From an uncultured Ignavibacteria bacterium (lineage in GTDB: Bacteria; Zixibacteria; MSB-5A5; SM1-73), in assembly GCA_964631815.1 (NCBI GenBank), contig CAZWAO010000002.1, positions 1-43,527 on the forward strand: 43,527 nucleotides of DNA, written 5' to 3'. The position numbers and the translations under genes were made by a program. Every line of letters starts with the position of its first letter. Within the stretch, counting starts at the first letter, position 1. Shown one piece after another: positions 6,708 to 36,581 of the stretch. The notes below the pieces were generated by a model. That model searched no databases, had not been told where the DNA came from, and was given only the letters and a program-made list of their open reading frames with translations.

Positions 6708-9659
6708 TTATTTTAGAAGAAGCATCTTATTGGTCTTGGTGAATTCCCCCGCCTCCATCCTGTAAAAGTATACGCCGCTGGCGACATCCTGGCCCCTTTG
6801 GTTTTTTCCATCCCATATCACCCTTTTATCGCCTGCCGTCTGTATCTCATCCACCAGAACCTTTACCTCCTGCCCCAGTATATTGTAGACCGTCAGTCGC
6901 ACGCTTCCGGCACGAGGAAGCGAATACTCTATTACAGTCTCGGCATTGAACGGATTTGGGAAGTTGTGCCCCAGGCGGAATGAAGTTATCACTCCCTCCT
7001 CTCCCTCTTCCACCGAAGAGGGAATCATTCCCAGGTCGCTCAAGGCCTGGTGTAATAGCTGGGTAGCTTGTGCCTCCTGAATGAAGTATAGCGGGAAATC
7101 GAAGAAGATAACCTGCTGGCCAGTTCCTAAGTAGCGGAAGGCGACGGGTTTGCCTTCGGAAGCTGAGGTATCGTAGGTCGAATGGAAGGTGTAGATAACC
7201 TCTCCGGCCATAAGGCTGTCGATGTAACCAACGCCGGGGACTCTTCCTAATAACTCCAGCCCCGGGGCTGCCTGGGCCACTCGCAGGCTGTCGACCTGAA
7301 GGTCCGGGTAACCGGAAATCCGGCTGTGCGCCCCAATGAACTCCTCCGAGCGCTCGTCGAGAGTGCTCCACGGCGGAACCAAAGCAGATTCGACGTGGAG
7401 CCGGTCATAACGGATATCGCCGGCTGAGAAATGCCTGATGGACCAATCGCCGTCATCTCCCTGGGAGAGATTGCGGCGGCCCTCGATGATAACCTTGCCG
7501 CCATAATCCAGATATTTCTTGAGAACCGAGTAAGTCGAATCCGTATCTGCTCCCAGCGACCGGTTTCCTCTGAAGTCCTCGGAGTGAACGATCACCACGC
7601 TGTAACGGCCGAGCTCAGGAAGGCGCAGCTGAGGATACGGGGGACAACTGGGACAACTGTGGTCCACATAGGCTCGCGTGTATTCCTGTAACGCACGCTC
7701 GTAAAAGGCATTTATGCTGTCGCCGTTCACCATGTTGTTGCCTATGTCTATATAGGTTTCGTCCACCACCAACAGGCCCTGATCCAAGGTAACGGCGAAG
7801 CCCCGGGCTTCGCTCGACATCTGGCTTTCGTTTCCGGTGGTATCCACTGCCGTTAAGGTGTAGTAATAATACTCCACGTCGCCTTGGACGGTCGAATCCA
7901 CAAAAGTCGTGTCGCTCCACTCATCCGCCAGAAGCTGGTAACCGGAGCCGGATTGTTCGCTTCTGAAGATTCTGTAGTGGTCGAAATCGGCTTCGCGGTT
8001 GGCGGCCCAGTCGAGTTTGATCTTGTATGTGCCGTATGGGTCAGCTATCAGTTCCGACGGTGCCCGCGGCGCCACTCTGGGTGCTAAGGAGACCTCCGGA
8101 TTGGCGAAGCTTTCGAATCCGGTCTGGTTGACGGCCGACACGGTGAAGAAGTATGTCGTGTTCTCGGTCAAAGCGGTGAGGGTATCGGTGTTACCGGCCA
8201 GTTGGCGGACGCTGTCGTAGTCTCCGCTGGAGGTGCCGAAGTACAGGTTGTAGTGGTCCACATCCTCCACCGGGTTATTATCTAACCAGTTCAAATACAA
8301 GGCGTCACCATCTCCAGCATCCACGGCAGTCAATCCCTCCACTGCCGAAGGGGAATTCCCCAAGGTCAGCACCGTGGCCAGGCACATCTTTGCGACTTCT
8401 CCCAGGTATGGAAAATTCAGGCTGTCGATCAGGTCATAATTCGTGTGCCAGCCGGCCGTGTGGAACTCGCCTTCCGAAGCCGCGACCACATCATAGCCAA
8501 ATTGGTAAAAAGAATTTTGATCGCTTGCGAAGTTCGGACCATCGTACACCGGGCGGAGGGAGGTGTACGTTTCCGCCGCATCCTTCATTGCTTCCACAAA
8601 TGGCATCTCTCCTGGCGGCGCATACAGCAGGACGTCGGGATCAGAATCCACGCTGTGTCCGATCATGTCGGAGTTGATCATCAGCTCCACGTTTGTTCCC
8701 CGATTATGCAGGTATTCCGCGAAGTGGTCGCTTCCTACAAGTCCTTGTTCTTCCTGAGCAAAGGGCACAAACATGACGGTTATGGGCAGCGGATTCTGAG
8801 AGATTATCCGGGCCAGCTCCAACGCGACCACCGTGCCGCTGGCGTTATCGTCGGCCCCGGGAGCAAAAACCATGGGGTTGACTCCGCTTCCGTTGACCAC
8901 GGAATCGTAATGTCCTCCCACGACCATCACCCTGTCCGGCTGAACCGTCCCTTCCACCGTAGCCACCACGTTCCACTGGTGGGAGACCCAGAAGTAGTGA
9001 TGAAGCCACAGGCTGTCGATGCCGAAGCCGGACATTTTCTGGTACAGCCAGTCTCTCGCCGCAATAATGGAATCGGAGTACGAGTACCTGGTGCGGAAGT
9101 CCTGAAGCCTCTGAATCCAGTCATGCAGCGAGTCCGCGGAAACCAGGTCGACTAAATCTCCAATGTCTTCGGAATAGCGCGGCGCGGCTGGGGGCCAGGT
9201 CATGGTTGGTTTGTATTCAAGCGGTATGGCCCGGCGACCAATCGGAACAACCATGTATCCGACCCTGGCCAGACCGGCAGCTTCTTCCTTCGAGCCTTTG
9301 ACGAATTGTCTGGCCTGGTCTTCGAATAAAACCCTACCGTAAGAAACCGGTGCCGGCTTGGCCAAGGTTTTGGGAGCGGAGATAAGGAAATAGTCTTCAG
9401 ACCAGGGCGACTCATCCACGATCCGGTATTTCAGGCCGGCTTGATCCAGCTCGCTCAACCTGTTCTTCTCGAACTCCGCTAATACGTAGCCTTCAAATCT
9501 GTGGTAGGCAATGACACCCAAGGATCGAGCGGCCAAAAAGTCTTTGGATTCCTTCAAATTGAGTTTGATCAGAACCGGATTAGCAACGGACGACGCAGAC
9601 ACGGAAAGCGAAACGGCAAGCGAAATAAGAAGGGCCAAAAGCGCTCTTCTTTGAATCAT
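6708..9659 (-). CDS. secreted M28-family metallopeptidase with FN3 domains, an unassigned ~250-aa module and a T9SS C-terminal sorting domain
   Basis: GGAGG sits 5 nt before ATG 9659; the track's GTG at 9665 is 2 codons upstream. A signal peptide is present. M28 zinc-ligand blocks are VVGGHYDSV, APGADDNASG, FAQEEQGLVGS and NSDMIGH. At least two FN3 repeats follow. The C-terminal T9SS/FlgD-like tail reads NFPNPFNAETVIEYSLP...GVYFYRMEAG...KMLLLK. Confidence 0.85.
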   Translation of the reverse strand: MIQRRALLALLISLAVSLSVSASSVANPVLIKLNLKESKDFLAARSLGVIAYHRFEGYVLAEFEKNRLSELDQAGLKYRIVDESPWSEDYFLISAPKTLAKPAPVSYGRVLFEDQARQFVKGSKEEAAGLARVGYMVVPIGRRAIPLEYKPTMTWPPAAPRYSEDIGDLVDLVSADSLHDWIQRLQDFRTRYSYSDSIIAARDWLYQKMSGFGIDSLWLHHYFWVSHQWNVVATVEGTVQPDRVMVVGGHYDSVVNGSGVNPMVFAPGADDNASGTVVALELARIISQNPLPITVMFVPFAQEEQGLVGSDHFAEYLHNRGTNVELMINSDMIGHSVDSDPDVLLYAPPGEMPFVEAMKDAAETYTSLRPVYDGPNFASDQNSFYQFGYDVVAASEGEFHTAGWHTNYDLIDSLNFPYLGEVAKMCLATVLTLGNSPSAVEGLTAVDAGDGDALYLNWLDNNPVEDVDHYNLYFGTSSGDYDSVRQLAGNTDTLTALTENTTYFFTVSAVNQTGFESFANPEVSLAPRVAPRAPSELIADPYGTYKIKLDWAANREADFDHYRIFRSEQSGSGYQLLADEWSDTTFVDSTVQGDVEYYYYTLTAVDTTGNESQMSSEARGFAVTLDQGLLVVDETYIDIGNNMVNGDSINAFYERALQEYTRAYVDHSCPSCPPYPQLRLPELGRYSVVIVHSEDFRGNRSLGADTDSTYSVLKKYLDYGGKVIIEGRRNLSQGDDGDWSIRHFSAGDIRYDRLHVESALVPPWSTLDERSEEFIGAHSRISGYPDLQVDSLRVAQAAPGLELLGRVPGVGYIDSLMAGEVIYTFHSTYDTSASEGKPVAFRYLGTGQQVIFFDFPLYFIQEAQATQLLHQALSDLGMIPSSVEEGEEGVITSFRLGHNFPNPFNAETVIEYSLPRAGSVRLTVYNILGQEVKVLVDEIQTAGDKRVIWDGKNQRGQDVASGVYFYRMEAGEFTKTNKMLLLK

Positions 9660-9800
9660 GGTCACCTCCAGGTTATACCCTGGCTTTCAACCCTATTTCC
9701 CACCTTAAGCTACGCATAAGCGACGGGGAAAATCGAATCAATCGCAGACCGAACCCATACAGCTTGCCGTGTCTGTGCCCGCAGATGGGTGAAAAAACGA

Positions 9801-9902: not shown

Positions 9903-12900
9903 ATGATTGGCGGTCGTTATCGGATTCTGCAAGAGATCGGTTCCGGCGGAATCGGGAGAGTATTCAAAGCCGTAGACCAGTGGGGGGACAGGACGGTTGC
10001 GCTGAAAACCCTCTCCCTCACCGGGCCGGATCACACCGAGAGATTCAAAAAGGAGTTTCTCCTCCTTCGAGGGCTGCATCATCCTCATATCGTGCCGGTG
10101 TATGATTTCGGCTGGGCTGATGAAGGCCAGCCTTGCTTCAGCATGGAGTTCATAGAGGGGCAGGAATGGGGCACGCTCCTTCAATCGCTTGATTACTCCA
10201 GATTGTGGCCGGTCATCATAGACATCTGCGGCACCCTCGACTTTCTGCACTGCAAGGGAATCATCCACGGGGATATCAAGCCGTCCAACATCCTGGTATC
10301 CTCCGATCCCCAGGGCCAATTGATTCCCACCTTTACCGATTTCGGCTTTGCCGAGCCGGGCAAGCCGGAGGACTCCACTTGGTGGAAGGGCACCCCCTCC
10401 TACCTGGCGCCGGAGATCATTCGGGGTGAAAGATACACTCATCAAGCGGACCTTTACTCCCTGGGCGTTTTGCTGTATGAGAGTATCTTCGGGAAACCAC
10501 CGTTTCAGGAGCAGGAGTTGGGCCGGCTGGCCAGGAGCCACCTGGAAAAAGAGGTGACGATTCCTGCTGAGCCGGCAATTCCTCAAGGACTGGAAGACCT
10601 CATCCTGAAGCTGCTGGAAAAGGACCCCATGGATCGCTGCTATTCAGCATCCGAGGTGCGGGCCAGGCTGGAAGAGATATCGGGGATGAGGCACCCCGAC
10701 TATGACCGTTCGCTTGCCGAAAATTTGATCTCCTCGGCCGACTTTGTGGGCAGGGAAAAAGAGCTGTCCCTGTTGAACCAAGCCTTCCGTCAAGCCCAAG
10801 AGAATGGGAACCCGGTGGTGCTGATCTCCGGTGAGCCGGGAATGGGCAAGACCGGGCTGCTGAAGGAGTTTGTGAGCCGGATCGAATTGGAGCAGGGCCT
10901 GGTCCTTAATCTGCGCCTGTCAGAGAGGAAATCTCTCGAGACACATCGCCGGGAGATAACCCGCTTGCTTGAATATAAAACCCTTACCAAGGTTCTGATT
11001 GTGGAAAACTTGGAGCAAGCGGCCGACTCGCCGGAGGAATTTCTCGGCAGTCTGCTCGGTCAGCCGGAACTCCACAGGTTGCTGCTCTGTCTCACCGTCA
11101 ACAACAGCCTCTCCCGCTCGGACAAAGACGCCAGAGCGACGCAAACCGAAGAGGCACTCAAATCGCTGCTGGGGGACAGACTCGTCCATTTAGAACTGGA
11201 GAGATTAACCGAGCTTGAGGAGAAAGATCTGGTCTGCTCCATGTTCGCCTGGGAGCAGAAACAAGCGAAAATAGTATCCGCAGTTTACCAGAAGGCGCAA
11301 GGGCATCCGATGCTGGTGCGGCAGACACTCCGGCAATTGGCTGAGAGCGGACATTTTGGCAGACGGGAAGATGGCTGCTGGATGCTCGATCCAAAGCAGG
11401 TGGAGCAAGCACAAGCACCGCCAGCTTTGGCCCAGGATATGACTGATCGACTGAGTCGTCTTGGTCCGGATGAGTTGCATCTCCTGGGTTTGGCCTCTGT
11501 ATTGGGCCTGCGATTTCGCTCCCAGACGCTAAGCGATTTGCTGGGAGGAACGTCGGAGGGCTTCCGAAAGCAGTTCCAGGGCATTCTGGCCGAAGGAATT
11601 CTGTTGCCCGGCCCGGATGGCTCCTCAGAGGACGGTTTTTGCTTCAATAGCGGCTTTGTCCGGGATCTCATCTTGTCACAGATGGAGGACCAGGAGGTCA
11701 GGGAGCTTCACTCTATGGTAGCCGGCTACCTGGAAGAAAAACAGTCGGCGGGAGTGGAGGACCATCTGGAGGAGTTAGCCGAGCATTACTACCTGGCCGG
11801 CAGCGCAGAGCCGGCTTTACGATATTCTCTTTTGGCCGCCCGTCGTGCCCGAGACTCGGGCCAAGCCGGACAGGCTGTGATCCATTATCTGCGGGTCCTG
11901 GAACTCTGGGATGAATCGCCTGCGCCTCCGGAGGGGACCAAAAACGAGATTCTGCGCGATTTGGCAAGTCAGTACGAGTGCGACGGGCGTTATCAGGAGA
12001 GCATAGAATATTACCAGAAAAGCCTGGATCTGGCAGCTAACGAAAGTCCGCAGAACACGGACGTCCTGCGGATTCAACAGAAAATCGCCGGTATCTACAG
12101 CAAGATGGGGCAGCATGACAGAGCCACCAAGTTGCTCGATCGAACGCTGCCGCTGGCTGATCCCAAGTTGTTGCCGGTGGAGCATGCATCCCTGCTCATC
12201 GACCTGGCCCGGGAGAGAAGGGTAACCTCAGAATACGACCAGGCCGCGGGATACCTGCAGGAGGCCATCGGGCTGCTCCAGGGATTGGGACCTTCCAAGG
12301 AGATGGGCATCGGCTTGAACTCGCTGGCGGGAGTTTGGTGGGCACTGGGCGATTATGACCGGGCATTGGATAACCTCTCGCGGAGTCTGGACGTATTCGG
12401 CAAACTGGGAGAGACCCGGGAGATGGTCGACTGCTACATCGCCAGAGCGCTCCTTTTGAGGAGCAAGGGACTTCCCGGGGAAGCCCTGCAAGATTCGGAA
12501 GAAGCCGGAGAGCTTTTGAGGAAGCTTTCCGACCCCTATCGAACCTCGGTACTGGAACACAACCTGGGCATAATCTTGACGGACCTCAACCGGTGGGATG
12601 AAGCTCTGGACTGTTTCAAGAGAAACCTTCAGCTGAAGACGCAGTTGCGCGACGTGAAGGGAGTGGCCCTAAGCCATAACAGCATGGGGCACGTCTATCT
12701 CAGAAAGGGCCGGTTTGCGGCAAGCGGCGATCAGTTGTTTTCCGCTCTGAAGATGTTCCAGGAGGCTCGCGACAGAAGCGGCGCTGCCCTGGTGTATTAC
12801 AACCTGGCCGATCTTTTCCGGTGCAAGGAAAACTATCAGATGGCTCGCCACTATCTGGACAGGAGCATGAGGATCGCCCGGCAGATCGGAGAGGAAAGCA

Positions 12901-14927
12901 GGACCGCAGACTGTCTCTTGCTGTCCGGAAAACTACATCTGGATCAGAGCGACTGGCCGAAGGCCGACCAGAGTCTATCTCAAGCAGCCCGTATCCTGAA
13001 AAACGGCAGGAACCTTCCGGCAGAGGCGGAGCTGGCTTTGGCTCAAGCCGAGTTGTGCGTTGGAACCGAAGATCTCCCCGGGGCCGAACAACACCTAAAG
13101 CAAGTTGGGCAGTTTGCGGAGTCCTCCGGCAGCGCCTGGCTGGAAGCGCTCCTATGCCGGGTGTGGGCCGAACTTTACAGGCTCAGCGGCGACGAAAGCG
13201 CCTGCCTGGATCGACTGCTGCACAGCCTGGCCACTTTCAAATCACTGGGAGCCAGGTACGAGCTGGGCAAAACTTATCTGAAGCTGGGCCGGCTCAAGCT
13301 GAAGATGAGGAGGGTGAAAGAGGGGCAGGCTTGCCTGAGGGAGGCGCTGAGCATTCTGGACAAACTGGAAGTGGAGAACAGCAGAAAGGAGGCGAAAGCT
13401 TTGCTTGACCAGACAAAGGAAATGCCCCATTTGGAGAAAGAGAGGATTCTCACCTTCTATCGACTGGCGGATTTGCTGAACAACGTCTGGGATACCGACG
13501 AGCTGCTGAACAAGGCCCTGGACTTGGTCATCGAGCTGTTGGACGCCGAGAGGGGAGCCATAATCCTGTACTCCGAAAAGGACAAGAGCTTCCGGGTTAA
13601 AGTCTCACGGAAACTGGAGCTGGAGACCTCCAAAGACGCCGTGGCCATATCCCGACGGGTGGTGAATGACGTCATCGAAAGCGATTCCCCCCTGATCGTG
13701 GACAATGCCACCAGCAACCCACAGTTCGCCGCCAGCAAGAGCGTAATCGCCTACAACATACTTTCCATATTGTGCGTTCCGCTGCGGACCCAAAATCGGC
13801 TCATCGGCACGGTTTACTTAGATCATCGCAGCCTGCCGGCGGTGTTCTCCTCGGAGGATATCGATTTTCTGAAGGCCTTTGCCAGTCTGATCGCCACGGC
13901 CATAGAAAAAAGCGAGCTGTATGCCAAGGTCCACGAAGAGGTATTCCAGCTCAAAGAGACCTTTCACCGGTACTATGAGTATCCTCATCTGGTGGGAAGG
14001 AGCGCAAAGCTGCAGGAGGTCTTCGGTCTGGTGGAAAAGGTGGCCCCTGCCAAAACCAGCGTCTTGATTCTGGGCGAGCCGGGCACCGGAAAGGAGCTTA
14101 TCGCTCACCTCCTACACGAGAGAAGTCCCAGAAGAGCCGGCCCATTCATACGGGTGAACTGCGCCGCCCTGGCGGAAAGCATGTTGGAGGGCGAGCTGTT
14201 CGGCGTAGAGGATAAGGCGGCCACCGGCGTGGGCTTCAGAAAAGGAAAATTCGAGTTGGCCGACGGAGGCACCATTTTCTTAGACGAAGTCGGAGACATG
14301 AGCCTGTCACTGCAGGCCAAGGTGCTCCGGGTTTTGCAGGAGAAAGAGTTCGAGAGGGTGGGGGGACAGCAATCCATAAAGGTGGATATCCGGATAATCT
14401 CGGCCACCAACCAGGATCTGCAAAAGAAGGTGCAGGATGGCGACTTCAGGTTGGATCTCTTCTATCGCCTGAATACCATTGTGATCACCATTCCTCCACT
14501 CCGCGAGAGAAGGGAGGATATACCCCTGTTGGTACAGCACTTCGTACAGAGGTCTGCTCAGGAGAACAACAAACCAGAGGTGAAGTTGACCAAGAGAATC
14601 ATGGCGGCCTTGCAGGCTCATAGATGGAGTGAGAGCAACGTCAGGGAGCTGAAAAATCTCATTGAAAGGGCTACGTTGCTAAGCGAGAATGGAGAATTTC
14701 CTTCGGACCTGCTCAGTAGCTTAAGCGTGATACGGGAGTCGGCTGATATGGACGGGCCGGGCAAACTCCAAAGCCTGCTGGATTGGGTCGAAAAGCACAG
14801 AATAGTCCAAGCCCTGCAGAGAAACGGGTGGAACCAGGTAAAGGCTGCCGAGGAATTGGGCTTGAATGAGACCACCCTGAGAAGGCGAATGAAGAAACAC
14901 AAAATCAAGAAACCTCTTCGATTGTAG
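9903..14927 (+). CDS. 1674-aa multidomain regulator: Hanks Ser/Thr kinase - STAND/AAA P-loop NTPase - TPR array - GAF - sigma-54 interaction AAA+ domain - Fis-type HTH
   Basis: Kinase motifs: GSGGIGRVF, VALKTL, HGDIKPSNIL (non-RD), TDFGFA, YLAPE. The STAND Walker A is GEPGMGKTG (nt 10830-10856), preceded by FVGREKEL. A long TPR-like helical repeat region follows, then a GAF domain (AERGAIILYS...LCVPL...LIGTVYLDHR). The sigma-54 activator domain has GEPGTGKE (14073-14096), GGTIFLDEVGDM, VDIRIISATN, FRLDLFYRLN, PPLRERREDIP and NVRELKN. The C-terminal HTH_8 reads NQVKAAEELGLNETTLRRRMKKH. Confidence 0.9.
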   Translation: MIGGRYRILQEIGSGGIGRVFKAVDQWGDRTVALKTLSLTGPDHTERFKKEFLLLRGLHHPHIVPVYDFGWADEGQPCFSMEFIEGQEWGTLLQSLDYSRLWPVIIDICGTLDFLHCKGIIHGDIKPSNILVSSDPQGQLIPTFTDFGFAEPGKPEDSTWWKGTPSYLAPEIIRGERYTHQADLYSLGVLLYESIFGKPPFQEQELGRLARSHLEKEVTIPAEPAIPQGLEDLILKLLEKDPMDRCYSASEVRARLEEISGMRHPDYDRSLAENLISSADFVGREKELSLLNQAFRQAQENGNPVVLISGEPGMGKTGLLKEFVSRIELEQGLVLNLRLSERKSLETHRREITRLLEYKTLTKVLIVENLEQAADSPEEFLGSLLGQPELHRLLLCLTVNNSLSRSDKDARATQTEEALKSLLGDRLVHLELERLTELEEKDLVCSMFAWEQKQAKIVSAVYQKAQGHPMLVRQTLRQLAESGHFGRREDGCWMLDPKQVEQAQAPPALAQDMTDRLSRLGPDELHLLGLASVLGLRFRSQTLSDLLGGTSEGFRKQFQGILAEGILLPGPDGSSEDGFCFNSGFVRDLILSQMEDQEVRELHSMVAGYLEEKQSAGVEDHLEELAEHYYLAGSAEPALRYSLLAARRARDSGQAGQAVIHYLRVLELWDESPAPPEGTKNEILRDLASQYECDGRYQESIEYYQKSLDLAANESPQNTDVLRIQQKIAGIYSKMGQHDRATKLLDRTLPLADPKLLPVEHASLLIDLARERRVTSEYDQAAGYLQEAIGLLQGLGPSKEMGIGLNSLAGVWWALGDYDRALDNLSRSLDVFGKLGETREMVDCYIARALLLRSKGLPGEALQDSEEAGELLRKLSDPYRTSVLEHNLGIILTDLNRWDEALDCFKRNLQLKTQLRDVKGVALSHNSMGHVYLRKGRFAASGDQLFSALKMFQEARDRSGAALVYYNLADLFRCKENYQMARHYLDRSMRIARQIGEESRTADCLLLSGKLHLDQSDWPKADQSLSQAARILKNGRNLPAEAELALAQAELCVGTEDLPGAEQHLKQVGQFAESSGSAWLEALLCRVWAELYRLSGDESACLDRLLHSLATFKSLGARYELGKTYLKLGRLKLKMRRVKEGQACLREALSILDKLEVENSRKEAKALLDQTKEMPHLEKERILTFYRLADLLNNVWDTDELLNKALDLVIELLDAERGAIILYSEKDKSFRVKVSRKLELETSKDAVAISRRVVNDVIESDSPLIVDNATSNPQFAASKSVIAYNILSILCVPLRTQNRLIGTVYLDHRSLPAVFSSEDIDFLKAFASLIATAIEKSELYAKVHEEVFQLKETFHRYYEYPHLVGRSAKLQEVFGLVEKVAPAKTSVLILGEPGTGKELIAHLLHERSPRRAGPFIRVNCAALAESMLEGELFGVEDKAATGVGFRKGKFELADGGTIFLDEVGDMSLSLQAKVLRVLQEKEFERVGGQQSIKVDIRIISATNQDLQKKVQDGDFRLDLFYRLNTIVITIPPLRERREDIPLLVQHFVQRSAQENNKPEVKLTKRIMAALQAHRWSESNVRELKNLIERATLLSENGEFPSDLLSSLSVIRESADMDGPGKLQSLLDWVEKHRIVQALQRNGWNQVKAAEELGLNETTLRRRMKKHKIKKPLRL

Positions 14928-14943
14928 TCGTCATAACTGACGA
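14928..14943. promoter_or_regulatory. enhancer-like site 1: perfect inverted repeat TCGTCA-TAAC-TGACGA
   Basis: It begins on the base after the TAG stop of the kinase-EBP gene. The arms are 6 bp with a 4-nt spacer. Confidence 0.5.
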
Positions 14944-15029: not shown

Positions 15030-15079
15030 TGGAGTTAACTCTATAATTCTACGTGAGTTATAAGTTGCAATGTCAGATC

Positions 15080-15095
15080 TCGTCAGTTTTGATCC
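15080..15095. promoter_or_regulatory. enhancer-like site 3 (inverted orientation, 12/16 match; TCGTCAGTT = reverse complement of AACTGACGA)
   Basis: Read directly from the sequence. The centre lies about 100 nt upstream of the -24/-12 element. Confidence 0.4.
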
Positions 15096-15182: not shown

Positions 15183-15199
15183 CGGCATTGGGTTTGCAA
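15183..15199 (+). promoter_or_regulatory. sigma-54 (-24/-12) promoter CGGCATTGGGTTTGCAA
   Basis: GG at 15184-15185 and GC at 15196-15197 are separated by exactly 10 nt. The sequence matches the consensus TGGCACG-N4-TTGCW at GGCA and TTGCA. It lies about 50 nt upstream of the small ORF start. Confidence 0.55.
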
Positions 15200-15246: not shown

Positions 15247-15465
15247 ATGCTTTCCAAATTCAATTCACACAGTGTCTCCATTTTGACCATAGCAGTTCTT
15301 CTGCTGTTGGTCGTCGGCTTCTCAGCCAGTGTAGTCTTGGCGGACGGCCAAGGTGGCCAGTGGCCCCTCGAACCCCCACCTGCGACCACCGGTGGCGATG
15401 ACGGAGGAAGCGAGGGAATCCAGACGCTGGTGACGGTCATGACACTGATGGAACTGATTCTTTAG
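15247..15465 (+). CDS. small secreted/membrane-anchored peptide (72 aa) of unknown function
   Basis: GGAGG at 15237-15241 sits 5 nt before ATG 15247. The N-terminal signal-like segment is ILTIAVLLLLVVGFSASVVLA-DG. The mature part is Gly/Pro/Asp-rich and ends in a hydrophobic tail (IQTLVTVMTLMELIL). Its stop abuts the next gene. Confidence 0.55.
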   Translation: MLSKFNSHSVSILTIAVLLLLVVGFSASVVLADGQGGQWPLEPPPATTGGDDGGSEGIQTLVTVMTLMELIL

Positions 15466-15483: not shown

Positions 15484-16233
15484 ATGCCACGCATAGTTAG
15501 CGAGACCAAGGAGACTTACGGGGAGCTCAGCAAGGCGGTTCAATCTCCCTTCAATCTGATTCTGGAGGGGGAAAGCGAGGTGGGAAAGGAACACTTCGCT
15601 CGCCTGATCCATCAGGAGAGAAACTGGGGGGGGCGTTTCGTGGTGTACGACTGCGAGCAGACGGGGCAAGAGCAGTCAGACATAGCTGGAAGGCTAACCT
15701 CGGAGGCCTTCCTGCAGAGGCTCAAGCAATCCCACAAGAAGGACACCTTCTTTGTGAGGAGGATCGATCTGCTTAAAGGAATCCTGCATGCACAACTCTC
15801 TGATTTCTTTGAGCAGCTGGCCGAGAGCGGGCGATTCAGCAGAAAAGAACTCCTTAGCCTGGGCATCATCGGATCGGTTCAGCCCGAGAGGAACAGGTTT
15901 TCCTTGGAGAGCGTCCAGTTGAACAGACTGCTGGACATTCTCTTCTGTCTGAGGATTAGAATCCTGCCTCTCAGGGAGCGGAAGGCGGAGATCCCCAGGT
16001 TGGTGGAGCGGTTCGTCCGTTTATTCAATCGCGAACATAAAAAAGAAGTGGAGGGGGTTTCAGCGGAGGCGCTGCAGATCCTGATCCGACACGATTGGCC
16101 CAATAACGTGTGCCAGTTGAGGACCGAGATCGAACGCGCCATAACCTTAACCCAAGATCATCATGCAATAACGCCGGATGCTCTGTCGGACGACTTAGTC
16201 GGATCCGCATCCAGAACGCGTTCGCTTGACTGA
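15484..16233 (+). CDS. stand-alone, degenerate sigma-54-activator-type AAA+ domain protein (no receiver, no GAFTGA, no HTH)
   Basis: GAGG at 15474-15477 precedes ATG 15484; an alternative TTG lies at 15466. EBP blocks that are retained: GESEVGKE, ARLIHQ, RILPLRERKAEIPRLVERFV and HDWPNNVCQLRTEIERA. Walker B hhhhDE is replaced by FFVRR, and the GAFTGA region is absent. Confidence 0.75.
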   Translation: MPRIVSETKETYGELSKAVQSPFNLILEGESEVGKEHFARLIHQERNWGGRFVVYDCEQTGQEQSDIAGRLTSEAFLQRLKQSHKKDTFFVRRIDLLKGILHAQLSDFFEQLAESGRFSRKELLSLGIIGSVQPERNRFSLESVQLNRLLDILFCLRIRILPLRERKAEIPRLVERFVRLFNREHKKEVEGVSAEALQILIRHDWPNNVCQLRTEIERAITLTQDHHAITPDALSDDLVGSASRTRSLD

Positions 16234-16235
16234 AA

Positions 16236-16850
16236 ATGGCAAAGCAAAACCGGTTGTCTTTCATCGTGGGCCTTCTCGAGCGCAACGGAACCATGACCGC
16301 GTCCGATCTGGCCGATAAATGCGGAGTCTCCAAAACCACCATCCAGAGTGACATCCGGGTCCTTTCGGATGCCCGGCTGGCGGTGCGTGCCGATGGAGGT
16401 TACAAACTGCACCATAAGGAGACCCGGCTCGGTCTGCATCTGACGGCGGAAGAGATGTTGAGTCTGTATCTGGGGCTCAACTCCCATCCGGTTCAGTCCA
16501 TCTCTTGTTTCCGCGAGGCAGCCAAACGCGCGCTCTCCAAAATCGAAGCGCACGTGTCGGAAGATGTCAACGGCGACTACGAGGTAGCCAAAAGACACCT
16601 GGCGATTCAGCCGGGGAAAAACCGTCCGCATGAAGGCGCCGCTCTCATATTCGAGCTCATGCGGCAAGCCATCTGGCCCAGGCAAAAGGTGGAACTGCAC
16701 TACGTTTCACCGTCCGGCTCCGAGCGCGCAAAGCTCGTGCCTCAGGGTTTGATCTATAAAAAGGACGGTTGGCATTTGGTGGGGTTGGTGCGCAAAAGCA
16801 AGAGATACTTTCGGCTGGACTTTATCAAAAGCGTGAGCCTCTGCAAGTAA
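16236..16850 (+). CDS. HTH (DeoR/HTH_11-type) - WYL domain transcriptional regulator
   Basis: The ATG lies 2 nt after the preceding TGA. The N-terminal wHTH is GTMTASDLADKCGVSKTTIQSDIRVL. The C-terminal WYL signature is KVELHYVSPSG...LIYKKDGWHLVGL...RYFRLDFIKSV. At 204 aa it has no C-terminal extension domain. Confidence 0.8.
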   Translation: MAKQNRLSFIVGLLERNGTMTASDLADKCGVSKTTIQSDIRVLSDARLAVRADGGYKLHHKETRLGLHLTAEEMLSLYLGLNSHPVQSISCFREAAKRALSKIEAHVSEDVNGDYEVAKRHLAIQPGKNRPHEGAALIFELMRQAIWPRQKVELHYVSPSGSERAKLVPQGLIYKKDGWHLVGLVRKSKRYFRLDFIKSVSLCK

Positions 16851-17323: not shown

Positions 17324-18259
17324 CTAAAAGCGGAACGTCAAAGAAATGGCGTGGGAGTCGCCCAGGTCATCCACCGGAATAAAGCAGTAGTCCAGACAAT
17401 AGGTATGGGTTTTGGCGAAGATCAGGCCCATCCCCCAGCTCAGTTTCGAGTTGGAGTTGAACTCGGAACCGCCGCTATATCCCATTCGAATGGCGATCAT
17501 ATTTCCATAAACGAATTCGGCGCCGGCGCGCAGGCTGTTTCCGTTGTCGGATGAAGCATAGAAATCAGCAACGGCGTTTATAGCGCCCCGGCCCAGAGTA
17601 TCATTCAAAGCCAGGCCCAACTTGATCACGCTGGGCAGCTCGAAAGATTCCGAGATGAACTTGACGTCATGTCCCAGGTTTTGCACGGCCCCGCCCAGGC
17701 GTAGCTTGCTCCAGGGCGTTTTGTACAACCAGCCCAGGTCAAAAGCCACAGTGTGGGCCGTGTAATCCTCGATGGTCTCGCTAAGATATTTGATGCTCGC
17801 CCCCAGAAAAAGGTTGGGGCCCGCTTTAGCACCTAGACCCAGAGCAAGGTTTATGTCACTGCAACCAAACTCCGAGGTGGGTTCCCCCAGTTGGTCTCTT
17901 CCCTCCAGCCGATCCATGTGCAGGTAGTTTAAGTCTCCTGCCAGAACCCCGACTCCCGGTAAAGGTCGTGCGAAGGCTGCGGATTCATAGGAGACATCTG
18001 ATAGCAGGGATTGATGCATGAAGGTCAGCTCCCAACCCTGGATGCCAGCCAGTCCTGCCGGATTCCAATGGATGGCCGTCACGTCGTCCGCCAAACCGGA
18101 AAAAGCCCCTCCCAGAGCCAGAGCACGGGCGCCCAAGCCCAGTTTGAGAACCTGAGCAGCGGAGGTGCCCACGTCGTCGCTGGAAGCCCAACATCCGGCA
18201 ACATGAAAACCACTCAGCAGTAGGAGCACTACAATTGCAATAAGACCCGTGTTCTTCAT
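17324..18259 (-). CDS. PorV/PorQ-family outer-membrane beta-barrel (T9SS-associated)
   Basis: A signal peptide is present. The family-typical N-terminal block is GTSAAQVLKLGLGARALALGGAFSGLADDVTAIHWNPAGLA. The alternating beta-strand pattern ends in an aromatic residue (LTFRF). The gene starts 13 nt after the stop of the S8 protease gene. Confidence 0.75.
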   Translation of the reverse strand: MKNTGLIAIVVLLLLSGFHVAGCWASSDDVGTSAAQVLKLGLGARALALGGAFSGLADDVTAIHWNPAGLAGIQGWELTFMHQSLLSDVSYESAAFARPLPGVGVLAGDLNYLHMDRLEGRDQLGEPTSEFGCSDINLALGLGAKAGPNLFLGASIKYLSETIEDYTAHTVAFDLGWLYKTPWSKLRLGGAVQNLGHDVKFISESFELPSVIKLGLALNDTLGRGAINAVADFYASSDNGNSLRAGAEFVYGNMIAIRMGYSGGSEFNSNSKLSWGMGLIFAKTHTYCLDYCFIPVDDLGDSHAISLTFRF

Positions 18260-18272
18260 TTTCCAGACCGTT

Positions 18273-21200
18273 TTATCGGATTACAGCCAGCTTCGAAATC
18301 TTCTCCTGCCCCTGGTCGTTGCTGACTCTGTATATATAAACCCCGCTGGCCAACTTCCGGCCCTGAGCATTAGTGACGTCCCAAGACACCTGCCCGTCTC
18401 CATCAGTCTCCTGAATGGTGCAAACCTTCTCACCGACCAAGGTGAACACCTCTATCTGAGCCTGAGCGGTGAGCCCGTCAAAGGTCACATGGGTATGACC
18501 CAGGTGCGGTTTGAACGGATTGGGATATACCGACGCGCTGGCCAAACCATCTGCGGCAAACCCCGATCGGCCCGGTCGATTGGCGAACCCGACCAGTTCA
18601 TCCAAAGCCGTGTGGAGAATCCGAGCGGCGGTTTCCTCCTCCACAAAATAAAGAGGAAAACCGAAGTAGATCACTCCGCAGTCTTTGGTGAAATATCTGA
18701 GCGCAACGGCTTTCCCATCGGAAGCGGACGTATCGTAAGCCGAATTGAAGGTGTAGATTACCTCGGAGCGATCCACAGGCGTAAAATAACCCACGCCGGG
18801 GAGCTTACCTCCCGGCCCGACGAAGAGGGGATCAAAGGCATGATTCACCCTCAGCGTGTCCAGCTTCACGATTTGAGGATAGTCCGGGGTCTGGGCCGCG
18901 CCGTTGGCTCCCACAAACTCCGGTTGGGTGGTGTTCCCACCCCAATATGCGGGCATCCAGGCCGAATCGATGTGGAGATCGTCTCGTCTGAAGTCACCGG
19001 CCTCAAAGACCGCAAACTCCTCGGAACAGCGGGATTCGCAGGATGACAGGATTCTCCTCCCCTCGATCAACAGGGCGCCGCCCGCAGCCAGATACTGCTG
19101 GAGAACGGGGTACCATTTCGAAAATCCCGTTGCCTCGTCCTCGTAATGAACCACCGTCACCCGGTGACGACTTAAGTCGAGAAGGCGGAGCGGCGATTCG
19201 TCGCCCCTTTCGATGGTATCATAAGAGTAGTTCTCCAAGGCCCGCCGGTAAAAGGCATTCACGCTGTCACCGTTAACCCCGTCGGCGGACTCAGACCCCC
19301 GGGTTAAATCCACCAGCAGTATCCCCGGTTCCAAGTACATCAAGCAGGCTTCCTTCTCGCTGGAAGGATAGCTTTCCAGCCCCAGCATATCCACGGCTGT
19401 CACGCTGTAAACATAGTCTCGGCCGGCGACCACCCGCGAATCGACGTACACCGTATCCCGCCAAAGCGACTCCAGCACACGCGACTGTTGGTCGGGCTCC
19501 CGGCGGAGGATCTTGTATCCCTTTATGTCCGTATCCCGTGAGGACATGTGCAAGGTAATACTGCTCGACCCGATGCTCACCGCCAGGCAGGGACTATGCG
19601 GCATTCCCACCAGAGCCGTGTCCTCAAGGGGTTGGCAATCCGATTCGGAACAGATGTATCGTTCAGATTCCAGTCCACAGACGTTTACGCTGGTCACCGT
19701 GTAGTAGTAGGTGAGGCCCTGCTGCACGTCTAAGTCGGTGTAGCTGGCCCAGCCTGTGCTGTCGTATTGGACCAGGTTGCCGTTGATCGGGTTCCGGCCC
19801 AGGTAGCTGCCCGATACCGGAGTCCGGTAAACGTTGGATCCGGCTATCTCCGTCCCCCAAAACTGGGCCTGCCATTTGAGGGTCACGCTGGTATCTGTAA
19901 CTTCCGTTACATCCAGCAGAGTGGGCATGGAGGGAGAATCTATGTACATGATCACCTTCTGCCCCAGAGAGCTCTCCAGACCGATCGTATCCACTGCCGT
20001 TATGGCGTATGAGTAAGGGGTCAGGACGGAGAAATTGGTATCCACATAGACTGTGTCCGGGGCTTGTACCGAATCTATTATTCCGTAGTCGGTCCAGCGA
20101 CCGGACAGATACTTGCACCGGTAGACATTGTACTTGGCCAGGTCACCTTCTGTATTGGGGGGCCAACTCAGGACGATGCGACATTCGTCACCCAACTCCG
20201 CGACCAGGCCGTCCACTCGTTCCGGCCGTCCCGGTACAAACGACCTCTCGTTTCCCGGGGTCATCCCGCTCTCCGACACGCCGCATTCTCCCTCTCGGAC
20301 GCAGGTGGCGTTGAAAAAGTAGGTTTGCCCTTCCATCAGGTCCGCAAAAACGAGAGTGTACTGCTGGGGAAAGGCATCCGGCAGCGGGGTGGAATTGATT
20401 GGGGGTTGCTGATAAACGCCCGAAGTGGTGCTGCGATATACGTTGTAGCCATGAGCCTCCTCGCTGTAGCACTTGAAGATCAGACTGGTATCGGTGTGGG
20501 CGATGATCTTAAACTCGGAGGGTGGTTCCGGCGGGTACAATGGGCCGGTTACCCGGACCGGTCCCGTCGGCAGGTGAGGAGGCGGTATGCCCTCCAGGCC
20601 CAGTGAATCCAGGGCGGTAACCCAAAAGTAATGCTCCAGCGAATCGTCCACGGCCGGATCGACCCACATGGTATCGTGTTCCACCCAGGTCACCAACGGT
20701 ATGCTACCGCTGTGCCCGGTCCCGTCATAGATGTTGTAGCGGACCACGTCGCTCTCACTGCTGGGATTCCAGTGAACCACAACATGACAGTCCCTGATTT
20801 CGCCGCCTATGCTGACCACCGGCTGCGGCCGGCCGGCCAGAAAATCCGCTCTGTTCGATGGGGAGGTGCCGTTGCCTCCCGTACCCTGGGTGACCACGTA
20901 GTAATAGGTGACGCCCTCTATCAAACCCGAATCCTGATAGCTGAGGTCCCGCCCTACCGGGTCCTCCAGGGGCTGGGCGTTTAAGGGTGGATCGGGGTAC
21001 ACGCCGGGAATGGTGGAACGAAACACCCAGCAACCCCGGTTTCCCTGAGCCACTCTCCAGCTCAGGGTCGGTTTTGTCCCTAACCACTCCGACACCTTAA
21101 GGCTGTAAGGCGGTGAGCCGAATGCCACGATTTCCGCCTGGGCCGCTTCAGAGGGAGGACTCTCCAATCCGGAGGAGTCAACCGCGCTGACTTGGTAGAG

Positions 21201-24200
21201 ACAAGTTCCGACCTCCTTGATTGACGAATCCACGAAGGTCGTCTCCGAGGCCGACGAACCCAACAGGCGGTATTCTCCGTAGCCGGGAGGATTATAGTAT
21301 ATCAAGTAATGGTCCACCTTCTGCTCGGCCGGGCTGGCAGGCCAAGTCAGGGTTACCTGGACCCCTTCTATGGTTGTCGACGGTCGGGCCGGTGCTGTCG
21401 GCCCGCCCGGTGTGATGCTTATCTCCGGCGACCGGCTGCTCTCCACTAACTGGTTGTCAACGCTGGTGATGGTGTAATAGTACCTCTGTCCCGGCATGAG
21501 GCTCTCATCCAGCCACTGGCTGTCCGGCTGGGGAATGGGATAGGGGTTTACCCTCTCTCCGGCTTGCCCCGAAAGAATAGACCGGTAGATGTTGTATCCT
21601 GCGGCCACCGAAGGCGCCCTGGGCGACCAACCCAGCGTAACGCTGGAATCGCTCCAGGCAATGACGTGGAAATCGGCCGGAGGGTAGTTGTGAGTCTCCG
21701 TGGCCGGGGGCTCGAAGCCCCAACGGCCGCTGTTCCAGCCGTCGTGCATGTACTTGGGCCAGGGTTCGGAGTCTGGATGGTAGTCGATGTCCAACTCCCA
21801 GGAGATCAATTTGGATTGGACATAAATGTTGTAGTCGGTGGGCAGAACCAGATCGATTTTTCCGTCCTTATCCAGATCATCGACCAGCGGCGTATAGGGG
21901 CTGTAAGTATACAGAGTAGGCTCGGCCGTGGCATACAGGGGGAAACCGGGCAAAAGCATGCCTTCGTGATCCCAGGCGTAGATTCCTTCGTAGCCGCTGC
22001 CCAGGAATTGCCCCGTCCGGACCATTATGTCGGCGCTTGCGTCTCCATCCACGTCCGCCAATACGGGACTGCCGAAAGTCTCTCCTCCGGTTGCGAACGC
22101 GTTCCCGTCCCCAGCTAATCCCCGGGCAGTTAACTCTTCCTTTTCCATGCCGCGACAACGGAATACAATCTCTCCTATGCTGCTGCCCAAGCCGGATGCC
22201 GCCTCCCTGATCCTCTTCGAGTCGGGAGTTTTATGAGAAACCAAAGTGCCACTCGGAACCAAGGGGGTCCCGTCCGCATGCCAGGCGTAAACGCGAGCTT
22301 CTCCCAGCGTCCACAGGCTGACCGCTATTTCCAGAGTTCCGTCACCATCCAAATCTCCCACCGCGGGGTGGTTCCCGAACCACCAGCCGGAGATCAGATC
22401 CGGTAATAGTATGGGGTAACCGGCGGCCTGAGTGCCATCCTTCTTAAAGGCACAGAGGGCGTGGTGGTTTCCGTTGGCGCCCAGCACCAAAACTTCCAGA
22501 TCCGGGCTTTCATCCACGTCGGCCACTGCGATCCCGAAAATGTAAACGAACTGAAAAGGATAGTCTCCCGGGCCCAACAATTGGTTTACGTCGTTATCCC
22601 AGATATAGATACCTCCCACCCCCTGGTAGTTGCCGTATTCTCCCGAAACCGCATGAGCCGCTCCGGCGATGATCTCGTTTTGGCCATCCTGGTCCAAGTC
22701 GGCCACGGTCAGACAAGGAAAGGCCATGTCCTCGGCGCTGCCCGCGGTCGAGACCAGCGCGCCCTGGGAGCCGGTAACGATCGGGAGCCCGTCGTTCCTC
22801 CAGCCATAAACCTGACCATTGCTGCTGATGGTGAGCACCTCCGGAACCCCATCCCCCTCCAGGTCGGCGACCACGGGCGTAGCCAGGCCCCAGAATTCGT
22901 TTCCCGCGGTGGCGGCGGGGGCAAACCAGTCGGATGAGGATGAGCAATAGGCGTGCACGCCCTGATCGGAGCAGATGATGATGTCCTGGATCCCGTCCCC
23001 GTCCAAATCTCCCAGGGCGGGTGAGGACATCATGTTTCTGTCCGTATCCTTGGGCCACCCCGACTCGCGCCGGCCGTTAGGACCGAAGACCTCAACTCCC
23101 CCCACCCTTCCGGTTGAGGGCGGGCCTCCCACTCCGATTACGATCTCATCGTATCCGTCACCGTCTATGTCCCCCACGGCCGGCGACAACGAGCCGTTGG
23201 AAGAGAGCTCCTGTGTCCAACCACCGGTGGCGATGCTCTTCACCGCTACTGCTACCGTGTCCGCGTATATCTGACCACCGGCAGTCTCCACCCATAGACG
23301 CAGGGCGTATTCCGTCACATCCAGAAAACTCACCAGCCACCGGCCCAAAACCCCGTCCGCCACCATCCGAGAGGACGAGTTTATCTCAATCCAGGTATGG
23401 GGCGATTGTCCGTATCCGTATTCCAGCTTGTAACCGGCGAAGTCCGGCGCTATAGTGTAGCCTGTGATCTCGGCAAATCCGGCTATGGTGTCCCCCGCCG
23501 CAGGAGAAGTTATCTTTACGTAATTCCGGTCGTTGGCGATCACGCGCACCACGGCTTGGTTTTGTTCTCCCACGGTCAATCTCAGAGTGAAAAGACCTGA
23601 CAGGCCGGAGCTGTTCCACAAGCCTAAGGTATCGCTCTTCACCGGAATGGTCGAGCTGGCGATGGTGGTCCAACTCTGGGGCCGGGGACCCTCTCCATAT
23701 TCCAGCAGATAGCCCGAGAACCCGGGTCCGTCTGCCGTCCCTATCACGGCCACCTCTCCGGAGACCTGACCGTTTTCTGTGGGATAGTCTATCTTCGCCA
23801 TCCTGCCGGAGACCAGCTGCAAAGCGGAAGCCAAATTCACTCTCCCGTAACCGCTGTAGACATCCTTCCCCGGAGAGTACAGGCTGTCGCCTCCGTAAGG
23901 ATAGATCAAGTCGTCTGCCGATTGTTCTATGATCTCCACTGTCTTAGCTGCAGTCATTCCCGGCGATACGGCCAACAGGTAAGCCGCTACTCCCACCACA
24001 CACGGTGCAGCCATGCTGGTTCCGTCTGCCAGGTAGTACTTCTCATTCACTATGTGAACCCCCGGGAATCCGTTCTCGGCGTACATGTCCGTGCCTGCAG
24101 CTCTCAAGGACAGGATATCCTCTCCCGGGGCCACAATCTCCACGTGATCGCCGTAACTGGAAAAAGGCGTGACCCGGTCCCTGCTGTTGGAGGCCCCTAC

Positions 24201-25386: not shown

Positions 25387-25402
25387 TGCAAACATCGTTC
25401 CA
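25387..25402 (-). promoter_or_regulatory. sigma-54 (-24/-12) promoter TGGAACGATGTTTGCA for the S8 protease / PorV operon
   Basis: The minus strand reads TTGGAACGATGTTTGCATCA. It matches TGGCACG-N4-TTGCW at every defined position except one (C to A). The GG-N10-GC spacing is exact. It lies 47-62 nt upstream of the GTG start at 25340. Confidence 0.55.
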
Positions 25403-26080
25403 AAGACTCTAAACGCCGGGGCCGATCCCCAATCCGTTGACTGCGAATCGGATGGGATCCACCTCAGATCACCCGCTGCCTGCGAGAAACGCAGAATTTG
25501 ACGACACCCACGCGGTCAAAGTCAGCCTCCCAGACATAATACGATCTTAATTAATGAGTTACTGATTCGCAGTGAACTCCGAATAGTATTGGGTATCGGT
25601 AATTCGCAGCATCAGGTGCGTGAATCTCCCCTGCTCAAGCCCGGTACATCATGCATTTGGATTTTGTGGGCGCCATACCACAACCGACCCCGGCGAATGA
25701 TCTGCGGCTTCTTGGTATTCGCCACGTGCGGAAAAGGACAAGGGAGCCCGGATTATTACGACCAGAGGCGGTAGATAAAGGTCGTTTCCGTACCGTTGGA
25801 TTTTACCCAGGCTCCCTCTTCAGATCATCTTTCGGCTCTTCAAGCGCACACAACGCCCTTTTCCTCCATGGCCTTCGGGAACAAAAGGGAATCGCAGCAA
25901 GGCCTTGTTGTGTGCAACTCGATTAGTATTATAATGTAGTCAAACGACTGGAAAGAGTCAAGAGGAAAAAGTGCCTGCATATAGGGCAGGAGCAGTACCC
26001 ATACCCGGCGAGACACTAAGGTATTGTCAGGATCACCCTATTTATGTGCATTTCTTGAACACCGGGCATTACGGGGCTCT

Positions 26081-35712: not shown

Positions 35713-35852
35713 AATGGGTTATCCGGTCCTTCTGGTGTGAAGCGCCCAGAGGTCCCCTGAGCCGCCCCTTCACCGCCTATCGGCTGCACAGAATGGATAA
35801 TCTGATTTGCCGCCCCTTGCGAAAAGTCATGGAAGCTGCCCCCTGCGGCCGG

Positions 35853-36581
35853 CTAACGTCCCACTGCCAGCCTGTCGATGAGAAACTGCGGCAGCCCCCG
35901 CTTTTTCATCTTCTCCTGAGTCTTCTTAAAATCGTAATCCAGCCTCTTCAGCGTGACCGTTTTTTTGTCTGCATCGTAGATCATAAAGCACGCCTTGTTG
36001 GACCCGTCCCGCGGCTGTCCCACCGATCCGATGTTCACAATGTACCTGAAATCCTTGGCGATCTCGCTCTGGTTATCCTCATGCAAGAAGCAGTGCCGGC
36101 CGTTGAACTTTTTTATGATGGCGGGAAAGTGAGAGTGCCCGATTATACACATCTGTTTGCCGAAGAAGCCGAAGTTCTCCTCGGCATCGTCCAGATCGAA
36201 GATGTAGTTCCATTGGTTCGGCTCCTTGGGAGTCGAATGTACCAGATGAGCTTGATCGAATTCGTGTTCCATCGAGAAGCCGGAGAGGATCTTCAGACTC
36301 TTCTCGGTCAGGACGCTCCTGGTCCATTCCATGGCCTGCTGGGCGTATTCGTTGAACAAGGTGGTCTCGATCAGCCCCAGAGCGGCGTAATCATGGTTGC
36401 CCATCAGCTTGACGTCGGTCAAACCGTCGATGAGCGAGACGCACTCGTTGGGATCCGGCCCATAGCCTACCGCATCTCCCAAGAAGAACATCCGGTCCAG
36501 CTTCTCTTTGCGAAAATCCTGGACCACCGCCTCCAGAGCTTCCAGATTGGAATGCACGTCTGAGAAAAATCCATATCTCAT
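35853..36581 (-). CDS. calcineurin-like metallophosphoesterase (probable partner phosphatase)
   Basis: Motifs present are SDVHSN, LGDAVGYGPDP, GNHD and GHSH. The start overlaps the FHA gene stop by 1 nt (TAATG). Confidence 0.78.
   Translation of the reverse strand: MRYGFFSDVHSNLEALEAVVQDFRKEKLDRMFFLGDAVGYGPDPNECVSLIDGLTDVKLMGNHDYAALGLIETTLFNEYAQQAMEWTRSVLTEKSLKILSGFSMEHEFDQAHLVHSTPKEPNQWNYIFDLDDAEENFGFFGKQMCIIGHSHFPAIIKKFNGRHCFLHEDNQSEIAKDFRYIVNIGSVGQPRDGSNKACFMIYDADKKTVTLKRLDYDFKKTQEKMKKRGLPQFLIDRLAVGR

Follow-up and report, generated by a model that had tools for sequence, protein, structure and literature searches.

What does a protein do in transcription control when it has the fold of a sigma-54 activator and, apparently, none of the residues with which such an activator performs catalysis and contacts sigma-54? 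The question is raised by a gene on contig CAZWAO010000002.1 (assembly GCA_964631815.1) from an uncultured Ignavibacteria bacterium that GTDB places in the Zixibacteria; the whole stretch of 43,527 nucleotides analyzed here is referred to as the window. A first-pass annotation had described the gene product as a stand-alone paralogue of the AAA+ domain of bacterial enhancer-binding proteins (EBPs) that had lost its catalytic and sigma-54-contact motifs, and had proposed either feedback by mixed-ring formation or a new non-ATPase function. The gene is the following:

15484..16233, + strand: stand-alone EBP-type AAA+ protein of 249 aa, predicted to be catalytically degenerate (core, lid and short C-terminal helix)

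The open reading frame (ORF; 15466/15484..16233, + strand) runs without interruption, and the 249 aa are counted from the ATG at 15484, which has a Shine-Dalgarno-like GAGGGA 6 nt on its 5' side. Every EBP landmark string cited in the first-pass annotation is in place in the protein, whose motif strings are GESEVGKE (residues 29-36), TFFVRRIDLL (88-97), LPLRERKAEIPRLVERFV (161-178) and HDWPNNVCQLRTEIERA (203-219). Pfam identifies AAA_lid_14 at residues 164-245 (E=5.6e-20) and Sigma54_activat at residues 8-60 only (26.2 bits, cut-off 20.2), the latter match covering positions 8-61, the first third, of a 168-position profile. The same search finds no sensory domain, HTH_8 or other DNA-binding domain and the chain ends 30 residues past the lid, in agreement with its earlier description as an AAA+ unit standing alone. 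Matches in NCBIfam are all below threshold, to many EBP equivalogs and largely across the lid. A sequence search of the PDB returned EBP AAA+ domains only, with CapR/DmpR (6iy8) as the best match (2e-16), followed by NtrC1, ZraR, NifA, VpsR, FleQ and PspF; the closest solved relatives are CapR/DmpR 6iy8, NtrC1 1ny6 and ZraR 1ojl. Further support is provided by AlphaFold2, whose model from an alignment of 33 family sequences (predicted local distance difference test, pLDDT, 87; predicted template modeling score, pTM, 0.79) has a five-stranded AAA+ core followed by a four-helix lid and one additional C-terminal helix. The top Foldseek matches of this model in the PDB are all EBP AAA+ domains (E ~1e-10, template modeling score 0.60-0.66). 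The alpha/beta core and lid of the EBP clade of AAA+ proteins are retained in the 249-aa protein, which is, as judged from its motifs, a pseudo-ATPase derived from a bacterial EBP.

To define the motif states we aligned 70 family members with 30 EBP AAA+ domains drawn from the fetched loci. The Walker A GxxxxGK is invariant, with G29, G34 and K35 present in 70/70. The fourth residue of the P-loop (position 32), a Gly in EBPs, is also Gly in 55/70 (GESGVGK) and is Glu in 15/70, all of them from the subclade of the window; the Glu that had been reported as a P-loop change is therefore real for the window protein, but it is a subclade feature within an invariant GxxxxGK. The reported exchange of the Walker B acidic pair for Arg-Arg applies to the family at large. 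The Asp found in 30/30 EBPs is Arg in 67/70 members and Lys in 3/70, and the Glu, likewise present in 30/30 EBPs, is Arg in 68/70. The Gly that follows Walker B in EBPs has become D95 (66/70), the glutamate-switch Asn of strand 2 has become D56 (70/70), and the Ala two positions past it has become E58 (65/70). The sensor I Asn is replaced by Q/E at 133. Within FRxDLYYRL, the first arginine finger is L146 in 67/70 and the second is S/I/E at 152, and the sensor II Arg is C210 in 49/70 and is retained as Arg in 5/70. The columns of the ELFG...GAFTGA hairpin are empty in all family members, as the earlier claim of a missing GAFTGA segment would have it, with ~15 columns lost and a net shortening of 8-9 residues; at this place AlphaFold2 predicts helices at 61-71 and 74-80 (pLDDT 83-92). 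The lid signature is retained (W205, N208, L212, E217, R218 and PLRER). Catalytic degeneration, as first proposed, is thus upheld by the alignment, and it extends to both arginine fingers, sensor I, sensor II and the glutamate-switch Asn, which had been overlooked.

All residues for hydrolysis, inter-subunit catalysis and sigma-54 contact are gone by this alignment, while the phosphate-binding loop and the lid signature are kept. The 249-aa protein is predicted to be unable to hydrolyze ATP because its Walker B DE is RR and the arginine-finger, sensor I and sensor II residues are absent, unable to contact sigma-54 for want of the GAFTGA loop, and unable to bind DNA because it has no helix-turn-helix (HTH). 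By descent it is an EBP homologue, yet it would fall short of the family on five functional counts. We refer to it below, for brevity, as the dead AAA+ protein.

Losses on this scale could also mark a decaying pseudogene or an annotation artefact such as a frameshifted EBP, and the partial match to the Sigma54_activat profile is what such a gene might give. We attach practically no weight to this explanation, and it was ruled out on several grounds: the intact ORF, the confidently predicted fold, orthologues that are colinear with it, and ~70 relatives that share both its length and its substitutions. The ratio of non-synonymous to synonymous substitution rates (dN/dS) is 0.10 and 0.13 against the orthologues in loci L001 and L007, and the gene is under purifying selection. 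The relatives come from two sources. A search of 5.8 billion proteins gave 59 clusters of 235-295 aa at 49-90% identity. An exhaustive search of 50%-identity representatives gave 47,800 EBP-like matches, only five of them below 1e-30, with a short tail of stand-alone relatives at 25-43% identity (P0061-P0067, P0072-P0074, P0077). Together the relatives reach down to 25% identity, and F[FL]RR[LIF]D[LF]L is retained in most of the distant stand-alone ones. Four longer matches (P0068, P0069, P0079 and P0080; 580-773 aa) were considered as possible fusions and rejected as ordinary EBPs with tandem active AAA+ domains. Each of these chains carries two apparently intact Sigma54_activat plus lid units, an unusual arrangement that is unrelated to the present finding.

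The replacement residues are themselves near-invariant (D56, R92, R93, D95). Since they are conserved in the way that catalytic residues are, they argue for a remodeled pocket rather than decay, possibly with a salt-bridge network of D56/E58/D95 with R92/R93. Because the canonical GxxxxGK is retained, nucleotide binding may persist.

To place this protein in a circuit we turned to its neighbors, which in the window are:

9903..14927, + strand: cognate activator of 1674 aa, with Ser/Thr kinase, AAA_16 (STAND) NTPase, TPR, GAF, Sigma54_activat AAA+ and HTH_8 (Pfam)
15247..15465, + strand: small exported or membrane protein of 72 aa, conserved at this position in every locus, the distant ones included
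16236..16850, + strand: HTH_11/DeoR-type winged HTH plus WYL regulator of 204 aa (Pfam WYL 1.1e-11, HTH_11 3.7e-8)

A search for orthologues and their genomic partners, which the first-pass annotation had proposed, uncovered a conserved module in ~30 loci, mostly from Zixibacteria. The scan of species-representative genomes contributed 12 of these loci (34-88% identity), all in Zixibacteria metagenome-assembled genomes (MAGs) or in MAGs labeled 'uncultured Ignavibacteria', and in 12/12 the gene order is 1674-aa-EBP orthologue, small ORF, dead AAA+ gene and HTH-WYL gene. The order is repeated in metagenome loci L026-L045 wherever the contig is long enough, and the distant relatives P0066, P0067, P0072 and P0074 likewise have small ORF, dead AAA+ gene and HTH-WYL(-WCX) gene in succession. 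Upstream of these genes, L022 and L025 have the HTH_8 tail of an EBP, and the distant L045 has a full kinase-EBP (EBP identity 36-40%). The dead AAA+ gene appears as the second of a three-gene operon that encodes the exported peptide, the dead AAA+ protein and the HTH-WYL protein. The proposed link to the EBP held; the peptide gene upstream and the HTH-WYL gene downstream, obligatory or near-obligatory partners, had been missed.

The 72-aa protein has a signal-peptide-like N-terminus, an ADGQGGQWP motif, a Pro/Gly/Asp/Ser-rich middle and a hydrophobic C-terminus of ~15 residues ending in LIL, and matched no Pfam family. Members of this peptide family are 60-98 aa long, are always encoded by the first gene of the operon and share the motif (A/G)DG-GGQ(W)P; dN/dS for the small ORF is 0.19-0.21. 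The peptide could be a signaling peptide or a membrane sensor. The HTH-WYL protein matches the PADLOC WYL profile (4e-27), and dN/dS for its gene is 0.14-0.19; no WYL domain is present in the dead AAA+ protein. Membership in a defense system was considered and dropped, as the PADLOC matches are generic only (RtcR/PspF-like and WYL profiles).

Departures from the common plan are informative. In L037 and L038 the WYL gene is absent and the next gene, on the opposite strand, encodes a resistance-nodulation-division (RND) pump; a lipoprotein gene and a gene resembling transposases of the tyrosine type associated with repetitive extragenic palindromes (REP) are inserted between the EBP gene and the operon (L037 6363-7362). 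In L040 (5541-7896) the dead AAA+ gene occurs twice in tandem, the copies being separated by an apparently degraded HTH(-WYL) gene. The EBP, peptide and dead AAA+ genes are kept in all of these loci. The constant set is therefore EBP, small ORF and dead AAA+ gene and, since the lineages without WYL keep the EBP, the constant cytoplasmic partner of the dead AAA+ protein is the EBP.

These loci bear directly on an alternative in which the dead AAA+ protein is one half of a split regulator: a non-catalytic module for oligomerization or ligand binding, possibly of a nucleotide, that docks on the co-translated HTH-WYL protein. The pair would rebuild an 'AAA+ plus HTH' unit that works at DNA without involvement of the EBP ring, either repressing or serving as a decoy. 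In the window the start of the HTH-WYL gene follows the AAA+ stop codon by 3 nt, in L022 and L023 the two overlap, the HTH-WYL(-WCX) gene is found downstream in most loci down to 25-30% identity, and the invariant P-loop is compatible with ligand sensing. The C-terminal helix also fits, as it is conserved (S235...RSL) and differs in the WYL-less L037 lineage, whose tail is longer. The same lineages, however, weaken this explanation, because the dead AAA+ gene is kept where WYL is missing (L037/L038) and is even duplicated where WYL is degraded (L040). Moreover, among homologues of either protein we found no fusion of the dead AAA+ protein with WYL or any other domain; the WYL homologues are all ~205 aa. 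Overall we consider a split regulator unlikely, although it is the rival to which we give most weight.

The following elements lie between the EBP gene and the small ORF (positions are given relative to the small ORF):

14928..14943, no strand assigned: enhancer-like palindrome, site 1, TCGTCATAACTGACGA, at ~-320, beginning right after the EBP stop codon
15014..15029, no strand assigned: enhancer-like palindrome, site 2, TCGGCATAACTGACGA, at ~-234
15079..15092, no strand assigned: degenerate third site, a half-site, CTCGTCAGTTTTGA, at ~-168, forming an inverted repeat with sites 1 and 2
15183..15198, + strand: candidate sigma-54-type -24/-12 element, CGGCATtgggtTTGCA, 64 nt upstream of the small ORF

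GGCA[CT]-N5-TTGCA is present at -63 to -74 of the small ORF in 22/24 loci, and the distant L022 and L045 have TGGCAT-N5-TTGCA at -65. No sigma-70-like promoter was found on the + strand. The 16-bp palindrome TCGTCA-N4-TGACGA is found at ~-320 and at ~-170 or ~-235 in 21/25 loci, against a background of 0.086 per 400 nt, and full palindromes occupy the third site, at -163 to -174, in L002, L003, L004, L007, L008 and L039. No other convincing copies of the TCGTCA palindrome were seen in the window. In WYL-less L037 and L044 the palindromes are retained, and in L037, where insertions separate the EBP gene from the operon, they remain on the promoter side. As they persist without WYL and follow the promoter, the palindromes behave as the enhancer of this promoter, which makes TCGTCA-N4-TGACGA a probable enhancer and points to the EBP, more than to the WYL protein, as the factor likely to bind it. 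The proposal that the dead AAA+ gene is under EBP control is thus well supported by phylogenetic footprinting, given the putative sigma-54 promoter, the palindromes and the adjoining EBP gene. No RNA run is listed for the window, and its matches are to DNA metagenomes from salt marsh and sediment only.

The giant EBP itself has intact Walker A, Walker B, arginine-finger and sensor motifs. Its L1 motif (~14085-14102) reads KAATGV instead of GAFTGA, and K[ATV]ATGV, with the Phe of GAFTGA lost, is present in all 25 EBP orthologues that adjoin a dead AAA+ gene (L001-L012, L026-L045). Other EBPs with G[AVI]ATGV, from metagenome loci, occur without a dead AAA+ gene.

Since it is expressed from a putative sigma-54 promoter beside a giant kinase-fused activator, the dead AAA+ protein most likely regulates that activator and does not activate transcription itself. 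An inert protein, blind to both DNA and sigma-54, could act only through protein-protein contact and perhaps through a ligand bound at its P-loop. We propose that it is a pseudo-ATPase subunit which is induced by the adjoining activator and co-assembles with the activator's AAA+ ring, in a manner resembling FleQ/FleT or as a feedback of Psp style. The giant EBP would bind the palindromes and switch on the operon, and the dead AAA+ protein would then enter the EBP ring through the ordinary, conserved ring interfaces by which AAA+ domains associate. With each dead copy two ATP sites would fall silent and the ring would be short of one sigma-54-contact loop, because the copy offers no arginine finger to its neighbor and has no catalytic site of its own. 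The activator would in this way be damped or re-tuned, the simplest prediction being negative feedback of the PspA/FleN/HrpV type, and a FleQ/FleT-like switch of promoter class being the other; the HTH-WYL protein would be an accessory output or input of the circuit in most lineages. Mixed-ring feedback is consistent with the conserved synteny and with the FleQ/FleT precedent. We hold this proposal tentatively, as a leading candidate that falls somewhat short of an even chance.

Of the systems known, the 249-aa protein would work most like FleT of Cereibacter (Rhodobacter) sphaeroides. FleT has neither an N-terminal domain nor an HTH and is made from a FleQ/sigma-54-dependent promoter; its hetero-oligomers with FleQ change the class of promoter used, and FleT alone is inactive (PMC10084136, PMC11999139, PMC7277832). 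The likeness lies in a central AAA+ domain that stands by itself and is encoded in an operon with a sigma-54 promoter under the partner EBP, a promoter and a control that are putative here. FleT is nevertheless set apart by its description as a sigma-54 activator that, with FleQ, activates class III promoters, whereas the 249-aa protein has lost Walker B, arginine fingers, sensors I/II and GAFTGA and should make no catalytic or sigma-54-contact contribution. HrpR/HrpS of Pseudomonas syringae form a heterohexamer, a pairing of EBP-family AAA+ proteins neither of which works outside the mixed ring (PMC3105312, PMC10084136). Both Hrp proteins have an HTH and active AAA+ motifs and they are close paralogues, while here the small partner is predicted to be inert and is 24-28% identical to the EBP domain. 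Anti-activators are also found within the regulons of their own EBPs, namely PspA for PspF, FleN for FleQ (PMC8528422) and HrpV for HrpS (PMC4145663). As proposed here, these cases share with ours a sigma-54-dependent operon encoding a protein that would act back on the AAA+ domain of its activator, but none of the three is an AAA+ homologue of its EBP.

Contact with sigma-54 has also been given up by the EBP-type AAA+ domains of TyrR, VpsR (PMC6158489), Rhodobacter capsulatus NtrC and Caulobacter NtrC (PMC10274813). The shared absence of the sigma-54-contact motif would allow the dead AAA+ protein to be an autonomous regulator of sigma-70 transcription like TyrR, VpsR or R. capsulatus NtrC, which we regard as very improbable. 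Those proteins keep their DNA-binding and sensory domains and are conventional transcription factors, whereas the 249-aa protein has neither kind of domain, and it has lost ATPase residues that several such regulators retain. Outside the EBP clade, the clamp-loader delta-prime subunit, the Torsin cofactors LAP1/LULL1 and Pex6 D1 are degenerate AAA+ subunits that keep the fold, have lost catalysis and act via active AAA+ partners. They belong to other AAA+ clades and, unlike the 249-aa protein, in which neither finger position is basic, several of them contribute an arginine finger. Acinetobacter MphX was considered as a precedent for a truncated EBP acting as repressor and was dropped, as the paper does not call it an AAA+ homologue. 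What appears to set the 249-aa protein apart from FleT, HrpR/S, TyrR/VpsR and PspA is that it is a stand-alone, constitutively dead AAA+ protein with conserved, charge-reversed active-site residues.

Several observations weigh against ring entry as we propose it. Two giant EBPs of the same architecture, P0161 and P0142, have no dead AAA+ gene downstream, so that a dead partner is not a general requirement of this architecture; both carry a canonical GAFTGA. Identity of the dead AAA+ protein to the AAA+ domain of its cognate EBP is 24-28%, not above that to unrelated EBPs, and no co-conservation of interfaces was seen. In most lineages the dead AAA+ gene is tightly coupled, often with overlap, to that for the HTH-WYL protein, an arrangement that fits a complex of AAA+ and WYL proteins equally well. 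Finally, the invariant P-loop suggests a ligand-dependent function, for which simple poisoning of a ring has no need. The identity also speaks to origin. The first-pass annotation had called the protein a paralogue; it is not a recent one of the 1674-aa protein, to which it is no closer than to unrelated EBPs. Recent duplication of the AAA+ domain of the adjoining EBP was likewise ruled out by the scores of a family hidden Markov model, to which unrelated EBPs of the GAFTGA type score a median of 93 bits and those of the ATGV type 84 bits.

The conserved P-loop invites a more specific suggestion, in which the remodeled pocket is a new ligand site. It is based on the invariant P-loop together with D56, E58, R92, R93 and D95, which replace Asn, Ala, Asp, Glu and Gly. 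ATP or a signaling nucleotide would be bound without Mg2+ and without turnover, its occupancy would gate assembly of the giant kinase-STAND-EBP ring, and the exported peptide would close the loop. We regard this as a long shot. If true, a nucleotide-sensing pseudo-EBP would be central to a peptide-based form of cell-cell or envelope signaling specific to Zixibacteria and their relatives.

The peptide takes a different role in a Psp-like envelope circuit, a sub-variant of mixed-ring feedback with a different input. Here the dead AAA+ protein would act as an anti-activator, and how much of it is available would depend on the small exported or membrane protein, through tethering or release at the membrane; the peptide would be sensor and not output. 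The small ORF adjoins the dead AAA+ gene in every locus, the WYL-less ones included, and the psp operon offers a parallel: from a sigma-54 promoter it expresses PspA, the anti-activator of PspF, alongside two small membrane proteins, PspB and PspC. Against it, the topology of the peptide is uncertain, with a signal-peptide-like N-terminus and only ~15 hydrophobic residues at the C-terminus. We think such a circuit improbable.

The surroundings of the module in the window include several further genes. A PorV/FadL-like outer-membrane beta-barrel with a UPF0164 match (17324-18259, - strand) and a 985-aa M28 peptidase with fn3 and an FlgD_ig-type tail (6708-9665, - strand) flank it, and both genes are syntenic in the closest relatives (L001, L002 and L007) but not in more distant loci. 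As this synteny is limited to close relatives, it is the clade of the window that has placed the module among large secreted proteases. Beyond the beta-barrel gene lies a gene for a 2355-aa S8 subtilase with FG-GAP and fn3 repeats and a C-terminal tail of the type IX secretion system (T9SS) type (18273-25340, - strand). It has a good sigma-54-like element, TGGAACgatgtTTGCA (25388-25402, - strand), ~50 nt upstream of its start, and several TGCGAAT/ATTCGCA repeats further upstream (25430-25640) that are unlike the TCGTCA palindrome. Assignment of the subtilase gene to the 1674-aa EBP is not supported, given that these repeats differ, and the gene may be sigma-54-dependent via another activator or DNA-binding partner. 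A separate signaling cluster (33214-37273, - strand) encodes a CHASE2-domain Ser/Thr kinase (832 aa), a metallophosphoesterase and a double-FHA protein.

EBPs are the textbook homo-oligomeric AAA+ activators of transcription, and natural hetero-oligomers among them are rare (FleQ/FleT, HrpR/HrpS, RedR1/RedR2). The literature we searched holds no description of a family of this kind or of the four-gene module; the pseudo-EBP family and its module are new, while the principle of a hetero-oligomeric or self-limiting EBP circuit is known already. For the little-studied Zixibacteria the analysis defines a compact regulatory module of palindromes, sigma-54 promoter, exported peptide, pseudo-EBP and WYL regulator, which in the clade of the window sits among very large secreted proteases. 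If mixed-ring feedback is correct, the activator would have, within the sigma-54 regulon that it controls, a conserved dead partner serving as a natural 'poison subunit', with the conservation of the replacement residues pointing to design rather than decay. Such a partner would add to bacterial transcription control a class of pseudo-enzymes that is comparable most closely to pseudokinases and to inert clamp-loader subunits.

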